A stretch of 64,000 nucleotides of DNA. It comes from an uncultured Chloroflexia bacterium (GTDB lineage: Bacteria > Chloroflexota > Limnocylindria > Limnocylindrales > CSP1-4). Shown here in pieces: positions 11,592 to 19,433 of this stretch. Within the stretch, counting starts at the first letter, position 1, and every line of letters starts with the position of its first letter. The translations under genes were made by a program, and so were the position numbers. Location of the stretch: contig CAWJBJ010000005.1 of assembly GCA_963841135.1 (NCBI GenBank), forward strand, positions 355,062 to 419,061, read 5' to 3'. The notes under the pieces were generated by a model. That model did no database searches, was not told the origin of the DNA, and saw nothing but the letters and a program-made list of their open reading frames with translations.

Positions 11592-12600
11592 TCAGGCAGC
11601 GGCGGACCAGTCGAGCTGCGGACGACGAGCTCGGGCTCGAACAGGAGCTCCTCGTGGGGGACGGCGGTCCCGGCGATCTGCCCGTTCAGCAGCTCGATGA
11701 CCATCCGGCCCATCGCGTCGATCGGCTGGCGGACCGTCGTCAGCGGCGGCTCCGTGCAGTTCATCAGGGCGGAGTCGTCGAAGCCGACCACCGACACATC
11801 GCCGGGCACGTTCATGCCCGGCGCGCCGTGCGGCCCGGATCGCGCCGAGCGCCATCGGGTCGCTGGCACACACGATGCCGGTGATGCCCCGGGCGAGCAG
11901 GCGGACCGCAGCGGCCTGCGCGGCCTCGAGCGAGTACAGGGCGTGGGCGACGTCGTCCGATCCGAGCGTCAGACCGGCCGCCTTCGCGACGACCCGGCCG
12001 CGCTCGAGCTTTCGCTGCGACGGGATGTGGTCGACCGGTCCGAGGAGCATGCCGATCCGCGTGTGGCCGAGCGAGATGAGGTGGCCCATCGCCTGTTCCA
12101 CGGCCACGGCGTCATCGCACGAGACCCGCGGAAAGCCGAGCCCGTCGATCGCCGCGTTGACGAGGACCGTCGGCAGCCCACGCTCCGCCAGCCGCGCGGT
12201 AGTGGCCGTGCGGCGCGGCCGCCTGCGCGTACAGTCCGCCGGCGAACACGACACCCGAGACCTGCTGCTGGAGGAGCAGGTCGACGTAGTCGGCCTCCGA
12301 GACGCCCCCGACCGTCTGCGTGCACAGGACCGGGGTGAAGCCCTGCTGCGCCAGCGCCCCGCAGACGACCTCCGCGAAGGCCGGGAAGATCGGGTTCTGG
12401 AGCTCGGGCAGCACGAGCCCGACGAGGCGGGCCCGCTCGCCGCGCAGCTTGGTCGGACGCTCGTAGCCGAGGACGTCGAGGGCGGTGAGCACCGCCTGGC
12501 GGGTCGACTCGGAGACGCCGGGCTTCTCGTTGAGGACGCGGCTGACGGTCGCCTCGCTGACCCCGACCTTGCGCGCGACGTCCGCGAGTCGTCTTGTCAT
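11592..12600 (-). CDS. LacI-family transcriptional regulator (frameshifted)
   Basis: HTH MTRRLADVARKVGVSEATVSRVLN; C-terminal DVSVVGFDDS...PPLTTVRQP. Confidence 0.9.
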
Positions 12601-12621: not shown

Positions 12622-12648
12622 ACGCAAGTCATTGCAAGTCACTTGCGT
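12622..12648. promoter_or_regulatory. Tandem LacI-type operator (autoregulation)
   Basis: ACGCAAGTCATTGCAAGTCACTTGCGT, containing GCAAG-TCA-CTTGC, just upstream of a TACCAT -10 and leaderless ATG. Confidence 0.55.
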
Positions 12649-12669
12649 GATGGCCGTGGCCCTTGGCTA

Positions 12670-13708
12670 CTAGCCGACGAGTCGCCGCTCCTGACCGCCT
12701 GAGTGCTGCCCGCGATAGTGCGTGGCCAGCAGGTCCTCGCCCCAGTCGTTCGTCAGGTCGCGCCACACCGAGTGGATGTGGTTGCCGCCGTTCTGGGTGT
12801 TGTCGTACTCGATGAGGAACTCGGGTCCGCGGATCGCGTAGTAGTGGCCGCGGCCCGGCGCATCCGGACCGGCCCAGGCGAACGTCACGGGCGCCAGCCC
12901 GGCCGAGCGGATCCGCTCCCACTCCGGCGTCGGCGACGTCCGGCCGAGCGCGGCCCAGGTAGTGGCGGATGAGCCGCTCGAGGTCCTGCGCCTGCCCGCT
13001 CTCGAGCTGTTCGTGGCGGATCCCGCTCGCGATCTCCCGGACGTCGGCCCGGCGGCCGTGGCCGCTCAGGATCTCGGGCGGCGCGACGGGATCCACGATG
13101 GCGATCGCGCGCTGCGCGGGCTTCAGGCTCGCGAGCAGGGCTCGCGCCAGGGTCTCCTCGCCATCGATCGTCCGCTCGCCGGCGCGTGGCCCGCTCGGGA
13201 TCGTCGCCGGGTTCGCCCCGAGGAAGGACGGCGCGCTCCCGATCACCAGGCCATCCGCCACGGCGACGGTGATCGCGACGTGGTGGCCGCCGACCCGCCA
13301 GGCCCATGGTGAGTCCCCGCCGGGCTCGCCGAAGACCGCGAACCAGTACAGCTCCGGGTCGCGTCGCGGCCAGCCGGGCTTGCCGCCGTGGCGTTCGAGG
13401 TCACCCAGGACGGTCTCGAGCGCGATGACCGCGCGAACCTCGCGGGCGCCTCGCTCGCTCATCGACGCGGTCACGATCAAGATCGCGGCTTCCCGCTGGG
13501 GCGGTGACATGTCCGCGATCGCGAGGCCCTTGCGCTCGCCCGGCGTGAAGGCCCAGACGAACCGCTCGTCGGTCTCGAAGGGGAAGGTCGCTCGGGCGCG
13601 TTGTGCCGGGTCGAGCCCGTCGATCCACCGCGCGACGGCGTCGGCGATGTCCGCCGCCGGCGGGCGCGCGAAGCCAGGGTCGGCGTGATGGATGGGGTGC
13701 GTTGTCAT
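12670..13708 (-). CDS. DUF3500 domain protein (frameshifted near C-terminus)
   Basis: [41 protein letters not shown] are family motifs. Confidence 0.8.
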
Positions 13709-13743
13709 CGTCCGCAAGGATACGAGCCGAGACACCGGGCGAC

Positions 13744-14163
13744 CTAGCGGGGCAGCCGCTCCCAGTCGACCCAGCGGGTGCCGTCCCACCAGCGATGCCA
13801 GGTGGTCCCGTCACGGCCGGGCGCCCAGACGTCGATCCGATCGGCGCTCCACGACGACGCCGCAGGCGTGCCGGTCAGCTCGCCGCCGAGCGACTCCCAC
13901 GGATGCCACGAGGTGCCGTCCCAATAGCGGTTCCACAAGGCGCCGTCGTCGAAGACCGCGAACACCTGGAGCCGGTCGATGCCCCACGCGGTGGCTGCCG
14001 GCGCGGAGGCCAGCGTCCCGCCGAGCGACTCGGGCTCGGACCAGGTGCCGGACACGAGAAAACGGTGGATCAGCCCACTGGACTCATCCACCGTGAAGAG
14101 GTCGATCCGATCAGGTCCCCACGAGACCGCGGCGGTCCCGATCGGTGTCGGTGTCGTGCTCAT
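13744..14163 (-). CDS. Three-repeat tryptophan-rich beta-propeller lectin-like protein (PLL/fucose-lectin-type blades)
   Basis: 139 aa; three repeats of about 45 aa: WGPDRIDLF, WGIDRLQVF...WESLGG, WSADRIDVW...WHRWWDG. Confidence 0.7.
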   Translation of the reverse strand: MSTTPTPIGTAAVSWGPDRIDLFTVDESSGLIHRFLVSGTWSEPESLGGTLASAPAATAWGIDRLQVFAVFDDGALWNRYWDGTSWHPWESLGGELTGTPAASSWSADRIDVWAPGRDGTTWHRWWDGTRWVDWERLPR

Positions 14164-14173
14164 GGAGCACAGG

Positions 14174-14408
14174 TTACTTGGTCGGGGCGAGGGTCCGGCG
14201 AAGATCGTCCGCGACGTACGAGTCGAGGCGATCGGTCGGCGCCGGCTGACGTGCGGCTCACGAACGCGAACGCGTTCGCGAGGGCCCGACGGGGCCACGA
14301 CGGACGGACCGGCAGACCGGCCTGAACGAGCGCGACGCGCCGCTGGTGATCCATCTCGCGGGTGCGGTCCGCGGCGATGTCGAGGGCGAGAAAGGCGATG
14401 GGATGCAT
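14174..14408 (-). CDS. Small hypothetical protein, about 77 aa (one frameshift)
   Basis: RBS GGAG then MHPIAFLALDIAADRTREMDHQRRVALVQAG...; after a one-base shift it ends RLDSYVADDLRRTLAPTK*. Confidence 0.55.
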
Positions 14409-14467
14409 GGGGAATGTCTCCTGGGTGAGCGATCGGTGGTCGAGGGTTCGCGTGGTCGACATGCGAG

Positions 14468-14584
14468 TTACCGGCGGTGGTCGTCGGTCATGCCGTCGCG
14501 GGAGTCCGCGCCCCAGTTGACCGCGGCGAAGTCCACCACGAGGAAGGCCGCGATGAGGCCGACGAACATCACGATTGGTTCCAT
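14468..14584 (-). CDS. 38-aa small membrane protein
   Basis: RBS AGGAGG then MEPIVMFVGLIAAFLVVDFAAVNWGADSRDGMTDDHRR*; one hydrophobic helix plus WGADSRDG. Confidence 0.65.
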   Translation of the reverse strand: MEPIVMFVGLIAAFLVVDFAAVNWGADSRDGMTDDHRR

Positions 14585-14611
14585 TTCGGACCTCCTTGTC
14601 CTTGCGTCCCG

Positions 14612-14692
14612 ATAACCCTTTAAGAGTTCTTTATCGGTTACTCGTACAGTACCCTCTTGCGCGTAACCTGTCAAGTGGTCTAAAGTGGTTAC
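14612..14692. promoter_or_regulatory. Divergent sigma70 promoters with two TAACC-N18-GGTTA inverted repeats
   Basis: TAACC 14613-17 / GGTTA 14636-40 and GTAACC 14663-68 / GGTTAC 14687-92. Minus promoter TTGACA(14669-74)-17-TACTGT(14646-51); plus promoter TTGCGC-18-TAAAGT(14681-86). Confidence 0.65.
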
Positions 14693-14695
14693 ATC

Positions 14696-15328
14696 ATGCA
14701 ATCGCAAGCCGCCCTCCACGCCCTCGATCCGGGCCACGCCCACGACGTCAACGTGGAGATCACCTTCGACTTCCTGAACACCCTCGACTACGACGATGGT
14801 TTCCCACGCGAGGGTCTGCCGACCCTCGAAGGCGTCCTCGCCTGGTTCGCCGACCACGGCCTGATCCATCGCGAGGGCGCCGATCGCCTGCGGCGTGAGG
14901 CCGTCTCCCGGCCGCGGGTCGCGGCCAAGGACCTCGAACGCGTCCATGCCGTGCGCGCGGCGCTCCGCGAGGTCGCCGATTCGGTCGTCGAGCACCGGGC
15001 TGCGCGCAAGGACGCGCTCGCGACCATCAACAGGGCGCTCCACGCCCGCCAGGTGATCGAGCTCGCGCCGTCGCCCGACGGCGTGCATGTCGACCACCGC
15101 CACGTCGGCGATCCGGTCGACGATGCGCTGGCGCGACTGTCCGAGGCCCTGGTCACCGAGCTGACCGCAGGCGATCCCGAGCGGATCCGCATCTGCGACA
15201 ACGACACGTGCCGCTGGGTCTTCTACGACACCTCACGCACGGGTCGCCGCCGCTGGTGCGACATGGCCACATGCGGCAACCGGGCGAAGGCCGCGCGCCA
15301 CCGCGCGAAGGTGGCCGCCAAGAACTGA
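14696..15328 (+). CDS. ABATE/CGNR zinc-finger putative transcriptional regulator
   Basis: N-terminal FDFLNTL (ABATE); C-terminal RIRICDNDTCRWVFYDTSRTGRRRWCDMATCGNRAKAARHR. Confidence 0.9.
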   Translation: MQSQAALHALDPGHAHDVNVEITFDFLNTLDYDDGFPREGLPTLEGVLAWFADHGLIHREGADRLRREAVSRPRVAAKDLERVHAVRAALREVADSVVEHRAARKDALATINRALHARQVIELAPSPDGVHVDHRHVGDPVDDALARLSEALVTELTAGDPERIRICDNDTCRWVFYDTSRTGRRRWCDMATCGNRAKAARHRAKVAAKN

Positions 15329-15355: not shown

Positions 15356-16299
15356 TCAGCCGGCGCGTTCCAGGATCGGCCGAACCTCCGTCGCGAGCCG
15401 GGTCATCGACTCCTCGTCGTGCGGCGACGGGAAACCGCGCGATGAGGTGGCGGTAGCCGAGCTCGAGGTAGGGGAGCAGACGCTCGGCGACGTCCTCGGG
15501 CGTGCCGACCGGCTGGTCGGTCCAGAGGTCGGCCTTGCCGTTGCGCTCGAAGATGGCCTTCTGGACGCGAGCCGCCTCTTCGCGGGAGTCGCGGATGACG
15601 ACCGAGCCGATGCCGCTCGTTCGCTCGATCTCGGACGGGTCGCGCCCGACGGTCTCGCAGTGCTGGAGGAGGATCGCCTCCTTGCGTTCGCACGTTGGCG
15701 ATCCCGCCGCCGACGTTGTTCGCGTCGCCGTACTTCGCCACGAGCTTGAGCGTGACCTTCTCGCCGCCGCCGCCGATCAGCAGCGGCAGGCGTTCCTGGA
15801 TCGGCGGCGGGTCGTTGCGCACGGCCTTCGCGGAGTAGCGCGGCCCGGCCGCCGTCGGCCGCTCGCCGTGGAGCATGCCGCGCATGATCGGCAGAGCCTC
15901 GCCGAGCCAGCGCAGCCGCTCCGGGAACCCGTCGCCGAACTGGAGGCCGTACGCGACGTGCTCGGTCTCGAACCACGCCCCGCCGATGCCGAGGATTGCC
16001 CGGCCGTTCGAGATGTGGTCGAGCGTCGTCGCCATCTTCGCGGTGAGCGACGGCTCCCGGAACGTGTTCGCCCCGACCATCAGCCCGATCCGGACCTGCT
16101 CGGTCGCCTGCGCCCATGCCGCCAGCGTCAGCCAGCCCTCGAAGATCGGACCCTCGTGGCTGCCGACGATCGGGTAGAGGTGGTCCCAGGTCCAGAGACT
16201 GTCGAAGCCGAGGCGGTCGGCACGCTGCCCGGCTGCCAGCAGGTCGGGCCAGGTCGTGTACTGGTTCCAGCAGAGCGCGCCAAGTCGAACGTCAGTCAC
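15356..16299 (-). CDS. LLM-class (luciferase-like) flavin-dependent oxidoreductase, possibly F420-dependent (frameshifted)
   Basis: GFDSLWTWDHLYP, KMATTLDHISNGRAILGIGGAW, LLIGGGGEKVTLKLVAKY. Confidence 0.85.
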
Positions 16300-16337: not shown

Positions 16338-16845
16338 CTAGACGAGCCCTCGCCAGCGTTCGGGGAATCGTTCGAGGTCATCCCGAACGTCGTCGGCCGC
16401 AGCCGTGAGGGTCTGTGAAGTCACTGGAAACTCGAGCCACACCGACCCCCAGTCATCCTCACGTCTCCATGGAGGCCGTGCCTCCAGTTCGAACGAGACT
16501 CGGATCGTGATTCCGGTGCGCTGGTCGGAAACCTTCCGAAACGCAAGGTTCGGCTCGATGAAGTGGATTTCGTCGGTGTCGACATTGCCGTCTGCGATGG
16601 CGTCGAACCAGGCGGCCAAGCTTTGGAGCTCCGTGGTGCGTAGGCACGGGTGACGGAACGGACCAATTCCGGTCGCCGTCGACTCGCCGTGACGGCGATG
16701 ACCAGCCAGTTCGCGTCGTGGTCGAACGCAGGCCATCGGCGGCGCAGGATCGAATTCGCACCAGCCGAGTCGCCCCATCCTCCAGAACTCGTAGCCGACA
16801 GGCGCGCATTCGAAGGCACGACCCGTCGGGACCCGCGAAGCGCAC
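16338..16845 (-). CDS. Hypothetical protein resembling WapI-family immunity proteins (frameshifted)
   Basis: Stitched fragments VGYEF, DHDANWLVI, FRHPCLRTTELQSLAAWF, IHFIEPNLAF, FELEARPPW; family resemblance is from memory, not a search. Confidence 0.45.
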
Positions 16846-16858
16846 CGGCGATCGACCG

Positions 16859-19433
16859 TCAGTCGCGGACGACGATGTTGATGAGCTTGCCGCCCGCGTG
16901 GATGACGCGTCGCGGCGTCGCGGCCGGCGAGGGCCGCGACGATCTTCGGGTGGCCAGCGACCAGCTGCCTCGAGCTCGTCCTTGTCGATGTCGAATCGGC
17001 ACGGTCAGCAGCGTCGCGCAGCTTGCCGTTGACCTGGACCGGGACCTCGCGGGTCGACTCCGTCGTGGCGGACTCGTCGACCTCGGGCCACGACTGCGTG
17101 TGGATCGACGCCCACGGCTGCGCCGGCCGCCGCCAGCCGCCGGCTCCACAGCTCCTCGGTGATGTGCGGCGCCGCCGGGGCCAGCATCAGCAGCAGCAGC
17201 CGGATCGCCTCGTCCCACTCGGCGTCCGCCGGCGATCGGCGTCCCGCGATAGCGGAACAGCGTGTTCGACAGCTCCATCAGCTTCGCGATCATCGTGTTG
17301 AAGTGGAACGCCTCGTAGTCCGCGGTGACGTCGCGCAGCGTCCGGTGGGCGGCGCGCGCGGAGCGTCGCCGTGGCAGTCGGCCTCGGTCTCGCCGGCCGG
17401 CCAGCGACGCCGGACTCGGGGTCGCCCGGCTCGCGGCCGTTCGGGTCCAGGGCCAGCGTCCAGACCCGGTTCAGGAAGCGATGGACGCCGCCGATCCCGG
17501 TCGGGCTCCACGGCCCGCCCTGGTCCCACGGGCCCATGAACATCAGGAACAGCCGGACGGTGTCGGCGCCGTAGCGACGGACCAGCTCGTCGGGGTCCTG
17601 GACGTTGCCGCGCGACTTCGACATCCGCTCGCCGTCGGCGCCCAGGATCTGGCCCTGGTTGAACAGCCGCTTGAACGGCTCGCGCTCGGTCGATCAGGCC
17701 GATGTCGCGCCATCGCCTTGGTGAAGAAGCGGCTGTACAGCAGGTGCATCACGGCGTGCTCGGCGCCGCCGGTGTACTGGTCGACCGGCGTCCAGCGCTC
17801 GACCATCGCGCGGTCGACCGGGCCGTCGCTCTTGTGCGGCGACAGGTAGCGGAACCAGTACCACGACGAGTCGACGAACGTGTCCATCGTGTCGGTCTCG
17901 CGCCGCGCCGGCTGGCCGCACGTCGGGCACGTCGACGTTGACGGAACGCCTCGTCGTGGTTGAGCGGGTTGTCGCCGCTGCCGTGGTAGTCGACGGTCTC
18001 GGGCAGCAGGACCGGCAGGTCCTCGTCGGGGACCGGCACGATGCCGTCGCGTCTCGCAGTAGATGACCGGGATCGGCGTGCCCCAGTAGCGCTGGCGGCT
18101 GATCAGCCAGTCGCGCAGGCGGTAGGTGACCTTGGGCTCGGCCCGGCCGGTCTCGGCCAGCCACTCGACGATGGCCTTGCCGCCCTCGTCGGCCGGCAGG
18201 CCGTCGAAGCGGCCGCTGTTGACCAGCCGCTCGCCCGCGGCGTGGGCGACGTAGGCGTCGTCCATCGGCGCGTCGGCGTCCACGCCCGGGCGCGGCCACG
18301 ACGCGCCGGATCGGCAGGCCGAACTGCTGCGCGAACGCGAAGTCGCGCTCGTCGTGGGCGGGCACGGCCATGATCGCGCCCGTGCCGTAGCCGGCCAGCA
18401 CGTAGTCGGCGATGAAGATCGGGATCCGCTCGCCGTTGACCGGGTTGATCGCGTCCGCGCCGAGCGCGACGCCGGTCTTCTCGCGGTCGGTCGACAGGCG
18501 CTCGATCTCGGTCCGGCGGCGGGCCTGCGTCGACGTAGGCCTCGACCTCGGCGCGCCGGTCCGGGTGCGGTCAGCCGCTCGACCAGCGGGTGCTCCGGCG
18601 CCAGGACCATGAACGTGGCGCCGAACAGCGTGTCGGGCCGCGTCGTGAAGACGCGCAGGATCGTCGCCGCCGGGCTGGTGGTCGTCCGGCGCGGTCTCGA
18701 AGTCGATCTCGGCGCCCTCGGACCGGCCGATCCAGTTCGTCTGCTGGATCCGGATCGGCTCCGGCCAGTCGATGCCGTCGAAGTCGCAGCAGCTCGTCGG
18801 CGTACTGCGGTCGTCCGCAGGAACCACTGCTCCAGGTCGCGCTTCTCGACCAGCGCGCCGCAGCGCCAGCAGCGGCGGTCCGGGCCCTCGACCTGCTCGC
18901 GGGCCAGCGTCCCGTCGTTGGGGCACCAGTCGACCGGCGACATCGCGCCGGTAGGCCAGGCCCGGCCTCCAGGAACCGCAGGAACAGCCACTGGTTCCAG
19001 CGGTAGTAGGCCGGGTCGGCGGTGACGACCTCGTGCTCCCAGGCGAACGTCGCGCCCATCGTCCGGAACTGGCGGCGCATCGTTCTCGATGTTCGCCATC
19101 GTCCAGGTGAACGGGTGGCCGCCGCTCTTGATCGCCGCGTTCTCGGCCGGCAGCCCGAACGCATCGAAGCCGATCGGGAAGAACACGTTGTAGCCGTGCA
19201 TCCGGCGGAAGCGCGCCAGCGCGTCGGTCGGCGTCACGATGTACCAGTGGCCGATGTGCAGGTCGCCCGACGGGTACGGGTACATCGTCAGCAGGTAGTA
19301 CTTGGGCTTCGACTCGTCGCGCAGGTCCGTCTCGTCCAGGCCGAGCTCCGCCCAGCGCGCCTGCCAGCGCGGCTCGATCGTCGGTCGGGTCGTAGCGCTC
19401 GATCCTGGTTCGGCTGTCGGCGGTCTCGGTCAC
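16859..19433 (-). CDS. leuS: Leucyl-tRNA synthetase (multiple frameshifts)
   Basis: [13 protein letters not shown] (HIGH), [38 protein letters not shown], terminal KLINIVV. Confidence 0.95.

Follow-up and report, generated by a model that had tools for sequence, protein, structure and literature searches.

Paired TAACC-N18-GGTTA repeats as candidate operators of a CGNR/ABATE zinc-finger regulator

Which protein, if any, recognizes a pair of inverted repeats lying in the gap between two divergent genes of an uncultured Chloroflexia bacterium? The repeats belong to a stretch of 64,000 nucleotides (GenBank assembly GCA_963841135.1, contig CAWJBJ010000005.1, positions 355,062 to 419,061 of the forward strand), which we call the window; in the genome, which comprises 3.46 Mb in 5 contigs at 70.8% G+C, it corresponds to C5:355062-419061. 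One of the two genes encodes a protein of the CGNR/ABATE zinc-finger family, and a sequence-only reading of the window had proposed that the repeats are the operator of this regulator. That proposal is supported by the conservation of the repeats, by their linkage to CGNR genes across phyla, and by the replacement of an asparagine with serine or alanine in regulators that accompany a TTACC variant of the half-site. We conclude that the two 28-bp repeats very probably serve as operators of the adjacent CGNR/ABATE protein, which would repress both itself and a divergent micropeptide operon.

Position, conservation and promoter context of the repeats

Exact matches to TAACC-N18-GGTTA occur twice in the window, and none of 100 dinucleotide-preserving shuffles of the window yielded the pattern. 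The repeats and the genes on either side of them are as follows:

14613..14640, no strand: inverted repeat 1 (IR1), distal operator candidate, TAACC-N18-GGTTA; exact match, at about +1 to +28 of the predicted divergent transcript
14664..14691, no strand: inverted repeat 2 (IR2), proximal operator candidate, (G)TAACC-TGTCAA-N12-GGTTA(C); exact match, within the CGNR promoter
14696..15328, plus strand: CGNR/ABATE regulator gene, 210 aa, with the Pfam domains ABATE and zf-CGNR
14468..14584, minus strand: gene of a 38-aa transmembrane micropeptide, MEPIVMFVGLIAAFLVVDFAAVNWGADSRDGMTDDHRR, with an AAGGAGG ribosome-binding site; it heads the divergent operon

The sequence of IR1 is cgaTAACCctttaagagttctttatcGGTTAc and that of IR2 is gcgGTAACCtgtcaagtggtctaaagtGGTTACatcATG; the arms of IR2 can be extended to GTAACC/GGTTAC (14663-14692). 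As had been read from the letters alone, the two repeats have an identical 18-nt spacing and lie in an AT-rich gap of about 110 nt: between the start codons of the 38-aa open reading frame (ORF; ATG 14584, minus strand) and the CGNR gene (ATG 14696) the gap measures 111 nt, with a G+C content of 47-50% compared with ~71% in the surroundings. Across the whole genome, TAACC is found 120 times and GGTTA 97 times. When TAACC-Nx-GGTTA was searched genome-wide with x from 8 to 29, only x = 18 was occupied, by three matches against an expectation of 0.0034 per spacing, and tolerating one mismatch added merely two TAACC-N18-GGTTA-like sites. The twin repeats are real, correctly located and far beyond chance.

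Orthologues sharing 62-82% identity with the window protein are found in 29 congeneric genomes, which together with the window makes 30 orthologous loci. We aligned the 30 intergenic regions, with minus-strand matches reverse-complemented. The arms are conserved at 99% in IR1 and 100% in IR2, and the spacer length of 18 nt is constant in all loci; the sequence of the IR1 spacer is only 60% conserved. Judged from the alignment, conserved arms, a fixed spacer length and a distal spacer of free sequence are the mark of a site that a protein contacts at two short stretches a set distance apart. TGTCAA, CTTGCGC and the TA..T of both -10 elements are also invariant or nearly so. They belong to four predicted promoter hexamers, all read by eye and then backed by conservation in the 30 loci:

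14657..14662, plus strand: predicted -35 of the CGNR promoter, TTGCGC, with an 18-nt spacer to the -10; CTTGCGC invariant or at least 90% conserved
14681..14686, plus strand: predicted -10 of the CGNR promoter, TAAAGT, with the right arm GGTTA immediately after it
14670..14675, minus strand: predicted -35 of the divergent promoter, TTGACA, inside IR2; TGTCAA invariant
14647..14652, minus strand: predicted -10 of the divergent promoter, TACTGT, with a 17-nt spacer to the -35; initial TA and terminal T at least 90% conserved or invariant

In the -10 element of the CGNR promoter, T147, A148 and T152 of the alignment (A2) are the invariant positions, and divergent transcription is predicted to start near 14640. 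Because the CGNR start codon lies 9 nt past the -10 hexamer and is preceded by no Shine-Dalgarno sequence, the CGNR mRNA is predicted to be leaderless or nearly so. In the CGNR promoter, the proximal repeat takes up the spacer together with the -10 and extends over -6 to -2; the predicted divergent -35 lies inside it, and the distal repeat spans predicted +1 to +28 of the divergent transcript; these positions suggest that both promoters would be repressed. Most of this layout had been anticipated: one repeat does cover the spacer and -10 of the CGNR promoter, and the other does lie just downstream of the divergent -10, but IR2 was said to abut the divergent -35, whereas it contains the whole of TTGACA.

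Could the conserved bases simply be promoter elements, or the repeat a product of chance in an AT-rich gap, with no operator at all? Part of the proximal spacer is indeed promoter sequence (TGTCAA, TAnnnT). However, none of the four hexamers includes the TAACC/GGTTA arms, which are the better conserved, the distal repeat has no promoter role, only 0.003 matches are expected per genome, and the site is linked to CGNR genes across phyla; we find this explanation hardly credible.

It is also very improbable that the repeats work as RNA, in the form of a 5′-leader hairpin of the micropeptide mRNA that might be protein-bound. The idea draws on the label of COG5516, ‘predicted RNA-binding Zn ribbon-like protein’, and on the location of the distal repeat in the predicted 5′ leader, which in the window genome folds with -15.1 kcal/mol, somewhat more stably than shuffles (z = -2.08). 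Yet this fold uses an offset CCGATAA/TTATCGG pairing that includes species-variable spacer bases, and the conserved arms would form only 5-6 bp around an 18-nt loop, with compensatory changes never seen. Moreover, the proximal repeat lies upstream of both predicted starts and is expected in no transcript, its fold being no more stable than those of shuffles (z = 0.18 and -1.13), and no Rfam match was found at E up to 1; the region does not qualify as a structured cis-regulatory RNA. The offset pairing corresponds to a second inverted repeat of 7 nt, CCGATAA/TTATCGG at 14609-14637, which is displaced by 3.5 bp from the distal TAACC/GGTTA dyad and of which the congeners keep part only.

A different question is whether a bound CGNR protein would repress at all. 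It might instead be an activator or dual regulator, for example by a MerR-like remodelling of an over-long spacer on ligand binding, and the placement does recall MerR-type operators: the CGNR promoter has a weak -35 (TTGCGC), and the centre of the proximal site falls within the 18-nt spacer of this promoter. We nevertheless consider this unlikely. The 28-bp site overruns the spacer, extending over the whole -10 and on to -2, and it covers the -35 of a near-consensus divergent promoter (TTGACA-17-TACTGT) while the distal site occupies +1 to +28; these are classical repressor positions. In addition, the spacer is 18 nt long as opposed to the 19-20 nt of MerR-type promoters, and a Pfam scan finds no MerR domain, so the protein is not a member of that family.

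The regulator and the linkage of the site to its genes

The candidate repressor itself matches PF11706 (zf-CGNR; E = 8.5e-21, 73.9 bits against a cut-off of 24) and, over residues 24-158, PF07336 (ABATE; E = 1.5e-14, 55.1 bits against a cut-off of 24.4). Its zinc ligands C167, C172, C188 and C193 are invariant in a 64-sequence cross-phylum alignment, as is C193-G-N-R. In an AlphaFold2 monomer model based on this alignment (predicted local distance difference test, pLDDT, 86.3; predicted template modelling score, pTM, 0.79), the motif C193-G-N195-R-A-K198 opens the C-terminal helix 193-209. A Foldseek search with the model returned 3H0N (Jann_2411; E = 2.8e-8, TM 0.56/0.63) as the sole PDB match below 1e-3, and the same entry is the sole PDB sequence match, at 25% identity. 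With a zf-CGNR domain that holds four cysteines and C-G-N-R, an N-terminal ABATE domain and the 3H0N fold, the protein is a member of the ABATE/CGNR family.

Jann_2411, from Jannaschia sp. CCS1, is the founding structure of an ABATE domain with a CGNR zinc finger, and it is dimeric both by PISA and by size-exclusion chromatography with static light scattering (SEC/SLS) (PMC2954205). Its authors predicted a DNA-binding treble-clef finger, described a putative ligand cavity and proposed ligand-controlled DNA binding (PMC2954205). It has the same two Pfam domains as the window protein; in contrast to the latter its motif is CQNR rather than CGNR, and neither a DNA site nor a target gene or ligand was known for it. 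In the PDB, the family has no DNA complex and no newer structure, and the searchable literature since the 2009 structure yielded no DNA site, target or ligand for it, in line with the earlier remark that no binding site is established; literature searches with the half-site strings returned unrelated operators only. The family is widespread: one search gave 3,870 protein clusters related to the window protein, and single actinomycete genomes have 6-16 paralogues. PF11706 was found in 0 of 14 named control genomes, and E. coli is without the family.

Does the site travel with this gene? In a pattern search of 61 relatives, it was found only in genomes that bear the orthologue, usually exactly twice and at the CGNR locus; the genome-wide search found no site in six congeners that lack the orthologue, nor in 24 genomes of the sister family. 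Among 401 Chloroflexota genomes, the strict single pattern GTAACC-N18-GGTTAC is no commoner than a backward-pattern control. Thirty site-bearing Chloroflexota genomes lie outside the genus of the window; 10 of them have a PF11706 gene, and in 8 of these 10 the site is directly upstream of it. By this comparison, adjacency to CGNR genes alone separates real single sites from chance. The three such non-genus loci that we inspected have the same twin layout, with a micropeptide as partner in one lineage and the small helical protein only in another.

We then extended the search beyond the phylum with the twin pattern TAACC-N18-GGTTA-N15..35-TAAC-N19-GGTTA, scanning one genome per species (185,579 species, 596 Gb). 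This gave at least 120 loci, and all locus counts below are among the matches listed. A hidden Markov model of the zinc finger, built from the matches, was run over all six-frame segments, and a CGNR gene was counted as adjacent when it lay at most 150 nt from the site. Adjacent genes were found at 94 of the 109 assessable loci; 11 more sites were too near the locus end. The 15 loci without an adjacent CGNR gene include 4 low-G+C chance repeats and 2 loci with a broken CGNR frame ~300 nt away, and since up to ~90 chance matches are expected in 596 Gb under uniform base composition, the non-adjacent remainder is unsurprising. The sequence-only reading would have been abandoned had no motif enrichment existed upstream of CGNR homologues; the enrichment is instead strongly positive in the 30 loci, in other Chloroflexota families and across phyla. 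The adjacent loci comprise 92 from 12 named phyla and 2 without a phylum label, distributed thus:

Acidobacteriota 28, Chloroflexota 22, Actinomycetota 18, Pseudomonadota 9
Gemmatimonadota 5, Bacillota 3, Bacteroidota 2, Dormiibacterota 2
Thermodesulfobacteriota 1, Spirochaetota 1, Atribacterota 1

Outside the Chloroflexota, the regulators are only 23-33% identical to the window protein. Despite this divergence, C167, C172, D178, W187-C188, M190, C193-G-N195 and K198 are invariant. The cross-phylum consensus of the distal site is TAACCnnnnAAnnnnnnnTnnnnGGTTA, and that of the proximal site, over the 94 loci, is TAACCTGTCAAnnnnnTTnnnnnGGTTA. The proximal site nearly always reads TAAC(C/T)-TGTCAA-N12-GGTTA, with each base of TGTCAA 80-98% conserved and a TAnnnT-like hexamer just before the right arm; judged from these alignments, it is the whole promoter-operator cassette that is conserved, not the arms alone. 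The start-to-start distance between the two operators is 45-59 bp, with modes at 47-48 and 51-54. The divergent genes, on the other hand, are unrelated to one another, fall into at least eight classes and vary by lineage:

Alpha/beta hydrolases (Abhydrolase_1), in actinomycetes: 13 loci
EamA transporters: 14 loci
‘..WGxDSR’ micropeptides: 12 loci, 11 of them among the 22 Chloroflexota loci
Further partners: DinB-like (DinB_2), periplasmic binding protein (Peripla_BP_6), ABM, MFS (MFS_1), AzlC and small helical proteins

The operator is therefore inherited with the regulator whatever the target gene. Because the CGNR gene is the only one constant across all adjacent loci, its product is by far the best candidate for the binding protein.

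This bears on a further alternative, that another transcription factor, encoded elsewhere or by one of the small divergent genes, binds the repeats and that the CGNR gene is merely a regulated neighbour. A small helical protein is indeed a frequent neighbour in Chloroflexota and some other lineages, but no micropeptide is present in Actinomycetota, Acidobacteriota, Pseudomonadota and Bacillota, where an enzyme or transporter takes the partner position, and CGNR is the sole constant; furthermore, the change in the half-site goes together with a change in a residue of the CGNR motif itself. We regard this alternative as improbable. A LacI-like gene near 12100-12600 suggested a LacI-family operator, a candidate ruled out by geometry: LacI-family proteins need a contiguous palindrome and not an N18 spacing.

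One genome separates site and regulator. In a Chloroflexota genome of lower G+C (G284), a twin site (L086, C1:86635-86664) precedes a gene for a small transmembrane protein with no regulator adjacent, and the only CGNR gene is on another contig (L372, C3), with its own twin site. This is the layout that would be expected of a trans-acting factor. A terminator-like hairpin follows the small transmembrane-protein gene at the first of these loci.

A candidate specificity residue and a proposed mechanism

If the CGNR protein binds the repeats, which part of it reads them? Six other genomes yielded 30 paralogues; in two of these paralogues, which have TTACC/GGTAA-type repeats, CGAR replaces CGNR. 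We searched metagenome contigs for twin sites with TTACC and GGTAA as arms; 26 matches adjoin a family member, of which 24 are readable. In this TTACC-N18-GGTAA set, the residues after the last cysteine are GSR in 16 cases, GAR in 7 and GAQ in 1, and GN occurs in 0 of 24, compared with 92 of 93 readable members of the TAACC set. Only the DNA pattern decided which loci entered either set, so the comparison is not circular. A maximum-likelihood tree of 117 proteins shows four changes of site type, and two independent pairs on well-supported branches both change in the expected direction. Pairing of asparagine with adenine, and of serine or alanine with thymine, makes chemical sense. In the AlphaFold2 model, the asparagine of C-G-N lies in the first turn of the helix behind the last zinc ligands, the part by which nuclear-receptor and GATA fingers read DNA. 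The case for direct read-out of the half-site by this residue is good, but not conclusive. On balance, we favour a combined picture in which the CGNR asparagine reads A2 of TAACC and serine or alanine leads to TTACC, in a large clade from at least 12 named phyla that uses two 28-bp operators, the proximal one in overlapping divergent promoters with the -35 of the partner and the -10 of the regulator in its spacer, and that can be attached to varied targets.

The operator-repressor model for the window can be outlined as follows. A homodimer would place its two C-terminal treble-clef fingers on TAACC and GGTTA, the centres of which are 23 bp apart (~78 Å, 2.2 turns) and would thus lie on roughly one face of the DNA. 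The helix starting with Cys-Gly-Asn-Arg would read the half-site, its asparagine pairing with base 2. Binding at the proximal site would occupy, in the regulator's own leaderless promoter, the spacer with the -10 and the stretch from -6 to -2, and also the -35 of the overlapping divergent promoter, and binding at the distal site would cover +1 to +28 of the divergent transcript. The expected outcome is autorepression together with repression of the operon of micropeptide, small helical protein and DUF346 gene. Release of the protein is presumably triggered, by analogy with other one-component regulators, when the ABATE domain senses a signal. The sequences show the sites, their uniqueness and conservation, their linkage to CGNR genes across phyla and the residue-base correlation; physical binding, the sign of regulation and a ligand are proposed, repression from the position relative to predicted promoters and dimerization from the fixed spacing and the precedent of Jann_2411 (PMC2954205).

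How does such a module compare with established ones? As in TetR/TetA-type modules, the regulator is divergent from its target, two palindromic operators overlap both predicted promoters, and autoregulation is likely; this geometry is found at the 30 orthologous and the 94 cross-phylum loci, where promoters are predicted. The partners, too, are often exporters or detoxifying enzymes (here EamA, MFS and hydrolases). In contrast to TetR, the reader would be a C4 treble-clef zinc finger and not a helix-turn-helix, and the 5-bp half-sites are 18 bp apart rather than joined in a compact ~15-bp palindrome. Membership of the TetR family proper was rejected, with no TetR_N helix-turn-helix present and with ABATE and zf-CGNR as the only Pfam domains; the logic is TetR-like, but the protein is not a member.

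The geometry of the site has a closer parallel in NikR, a nickel-sensing ribbon-helix-helix tetramer whose operator, GTATGA-N16-TCATAC, is also 28 bp long and has short inverted half-sites about two helical turns apart. Although NikR has no sequence or fold relation to the CGNR protein, this likeness suggests that DNA-binding domains may sit at both ends of a central ligand-binding core. Gal4-type Zn2Cys6 dimers, which read CGG-N11-CCG, and the nuclear-receptor and GATA proteins, which have treble-clef fingers, provide a parallel for the reading heads: zinc-finger dimers on very short inverted half-sites, with a spacer fixed by the dimer scaffold and a recognition helix that begins at the last zinc-ligand pair, as CGNR does in the model. 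These proteins are eukaryotic and unrelated in sequence, with other zinc stoichiometry and spacing. A two-fold symmetric dimer of any kind would fit a site of 5 + 18 + 5 bp.

Several points weigh against the proposal that the repeats are operators of the CGNR protein, or against parts of it. In the Jann_2411 structure, both monomers were described as forming one putative DNA site (PMC2954205), and a dimer that spans 78 Å without DNA bending is an assumption of the model. A strict need for same-face cooperativity is not supported, and the case for cooperative binding by a tetramer is weakened: the distances between the two operators are not strictly in helical phase. Within the genus, part of the co-occurrence of site and gene is trivial, since sites located at the gene are bound to occur with it. 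The residue-base correlation includes two supported pairs, or four on the best tree, too few for a significant sign test. The promoters and starts are predictions, and an automated promoter and terminator scan of 14400-14800 called no element; the scanner missed the promoters because TACTGT matches TATAAT at 3 of 6 bases and its threshold was at least 4 per hexamer. Finally, only some paralogues carry sites. The second CGNR-family paralogue of the genome (C4:613667-614227, motif CGTA) has no TAACC-type site, nor do ~20 of the 30 paralogues in the six other genomes, and a generic inverted-repeat search upstream of those paralogues gave no spacing preference over a coding-sequence control. Because of these site-less paralogues, the TAACC-type site is best described as the property of a clade and not of all PF11706 proteins.

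The regulatory logic that we propose is classical; what is new is the operator, the architecture of the cassette and the candidate specificity residue for a widespread, uncharacterised family. If true, such regulators would gain a first operator, together with first regulons and a first specificity determinant. With an exact 28-bp site, a candidate recognition residue and partner-gene lists, the family becomes readily testable, and the site permits regulon prediction in thousands of genomes. In this Limnocylindria-like Chloroflexota lineage, it points to a conserved, unstudied micropeptide operon as the controlled function. The nature of the partner genes (exporters, hydrolases, DinB-type and ABM-type enzymes) invites the speculation that the clade responds to toxic small molecules.

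The divergent operon, further sites and neighbouring genes

What would the regulator control? The micropeptide was previously unannotated; it has a conserved ..WGxDSR.. tail and is present in 30 of the 30 orthologous loci. Two genes follow it:

14160..14408, minus strand: second small gene, 82 aa, helical, MHPIAFLALDIAADRTREM...; likely start ATG 14408 behind AGGAGA; its stop overlaps the next ATG (ATGA)
13744..14163, minus strand: DUF346 repeat (lectin-like) gene, Pfam PF03984, 7.5e-8; ATGA overlap with the second small gene

The overlap suggests that the DUF346 gene is probably part of the micropeptide operon and translationally coupled to the second small gene. Neither the 38-aa micropeptide nor the 82-aa protein has a Pfam or NCBIfam match, and NCBIfam offered no names for any of the five local proteins. 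Small helical proteins like the 82-aa one are the direct twin-site partner elsewhere (loci L109, L121, L124, L127, L138 and L195), and the micropeptide, the helical protein or both recur as partner in Chloroflexota, Dormiibacterota and a few other lineages.

The third exact match in the genome, at C5:910957-910984, is ~180 nt upstream of a Glu/Leu/Phe/Val dehydrogenase gene (911166-912431, plus strand). The nearest congeners have two sites at the CGNR locus and no counterpart of this one, which could be a regulon member peculiar to this lineage or, alternatively, a rare coincidence (p ~0.003). Its location upstream of a glutamate dehydrogenase gene, together with the GTAAC/GTTAC arms, prompted comparison with the GlnR box (gTnAc-n6-GaAAc, period 22), which is ruled out by an arm offset of 25 and by the lack of a GaAAc b-site.

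Seven congeners (L061-L067) have one extra exact site, at 2501-2528 in L061, L062, L063, L066 and L067, which occupies ~+1 to +28 of a conserved TTGACG-N17-(C/G)ATACT promoter. Downstream of it is a conserved 62-66-aa Cys4 zinc-ribbon ORF (MMSRSTTSSVTGR...LYCSTNGC...CHVCGxVRR) beside a class-III aminotransferase gene. The window genome keeps both the ORF and the promoter at C4:1151818-1152260, with a degenerate site (TCACC-N18-AGGTC). In an Acidobacteriaceae genome (G459; L226, L232), two CGNR paralogues both have TAACC-type twin sites, and cross-talk between these paralogous regulators is possible.

Elsewhere in the window, three genes are each split over at least two frames: leucyl-tRNA synthetase (17187-19433, minus strand), DUF3500 (12629-13789, minus strand) and a luciferase-like monooxygenase (15403-16299, minus strand). 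Their Pfam matches end midway, which points to assembly indel errors (the assembly, in 5 contigs, is rated 79% complete) or to pseudogenes. A gene for a WapI-like immunity protein (16341-16778, minus strand; PF24716, 1.4e-19) stands alone downstream of the regulator locus.

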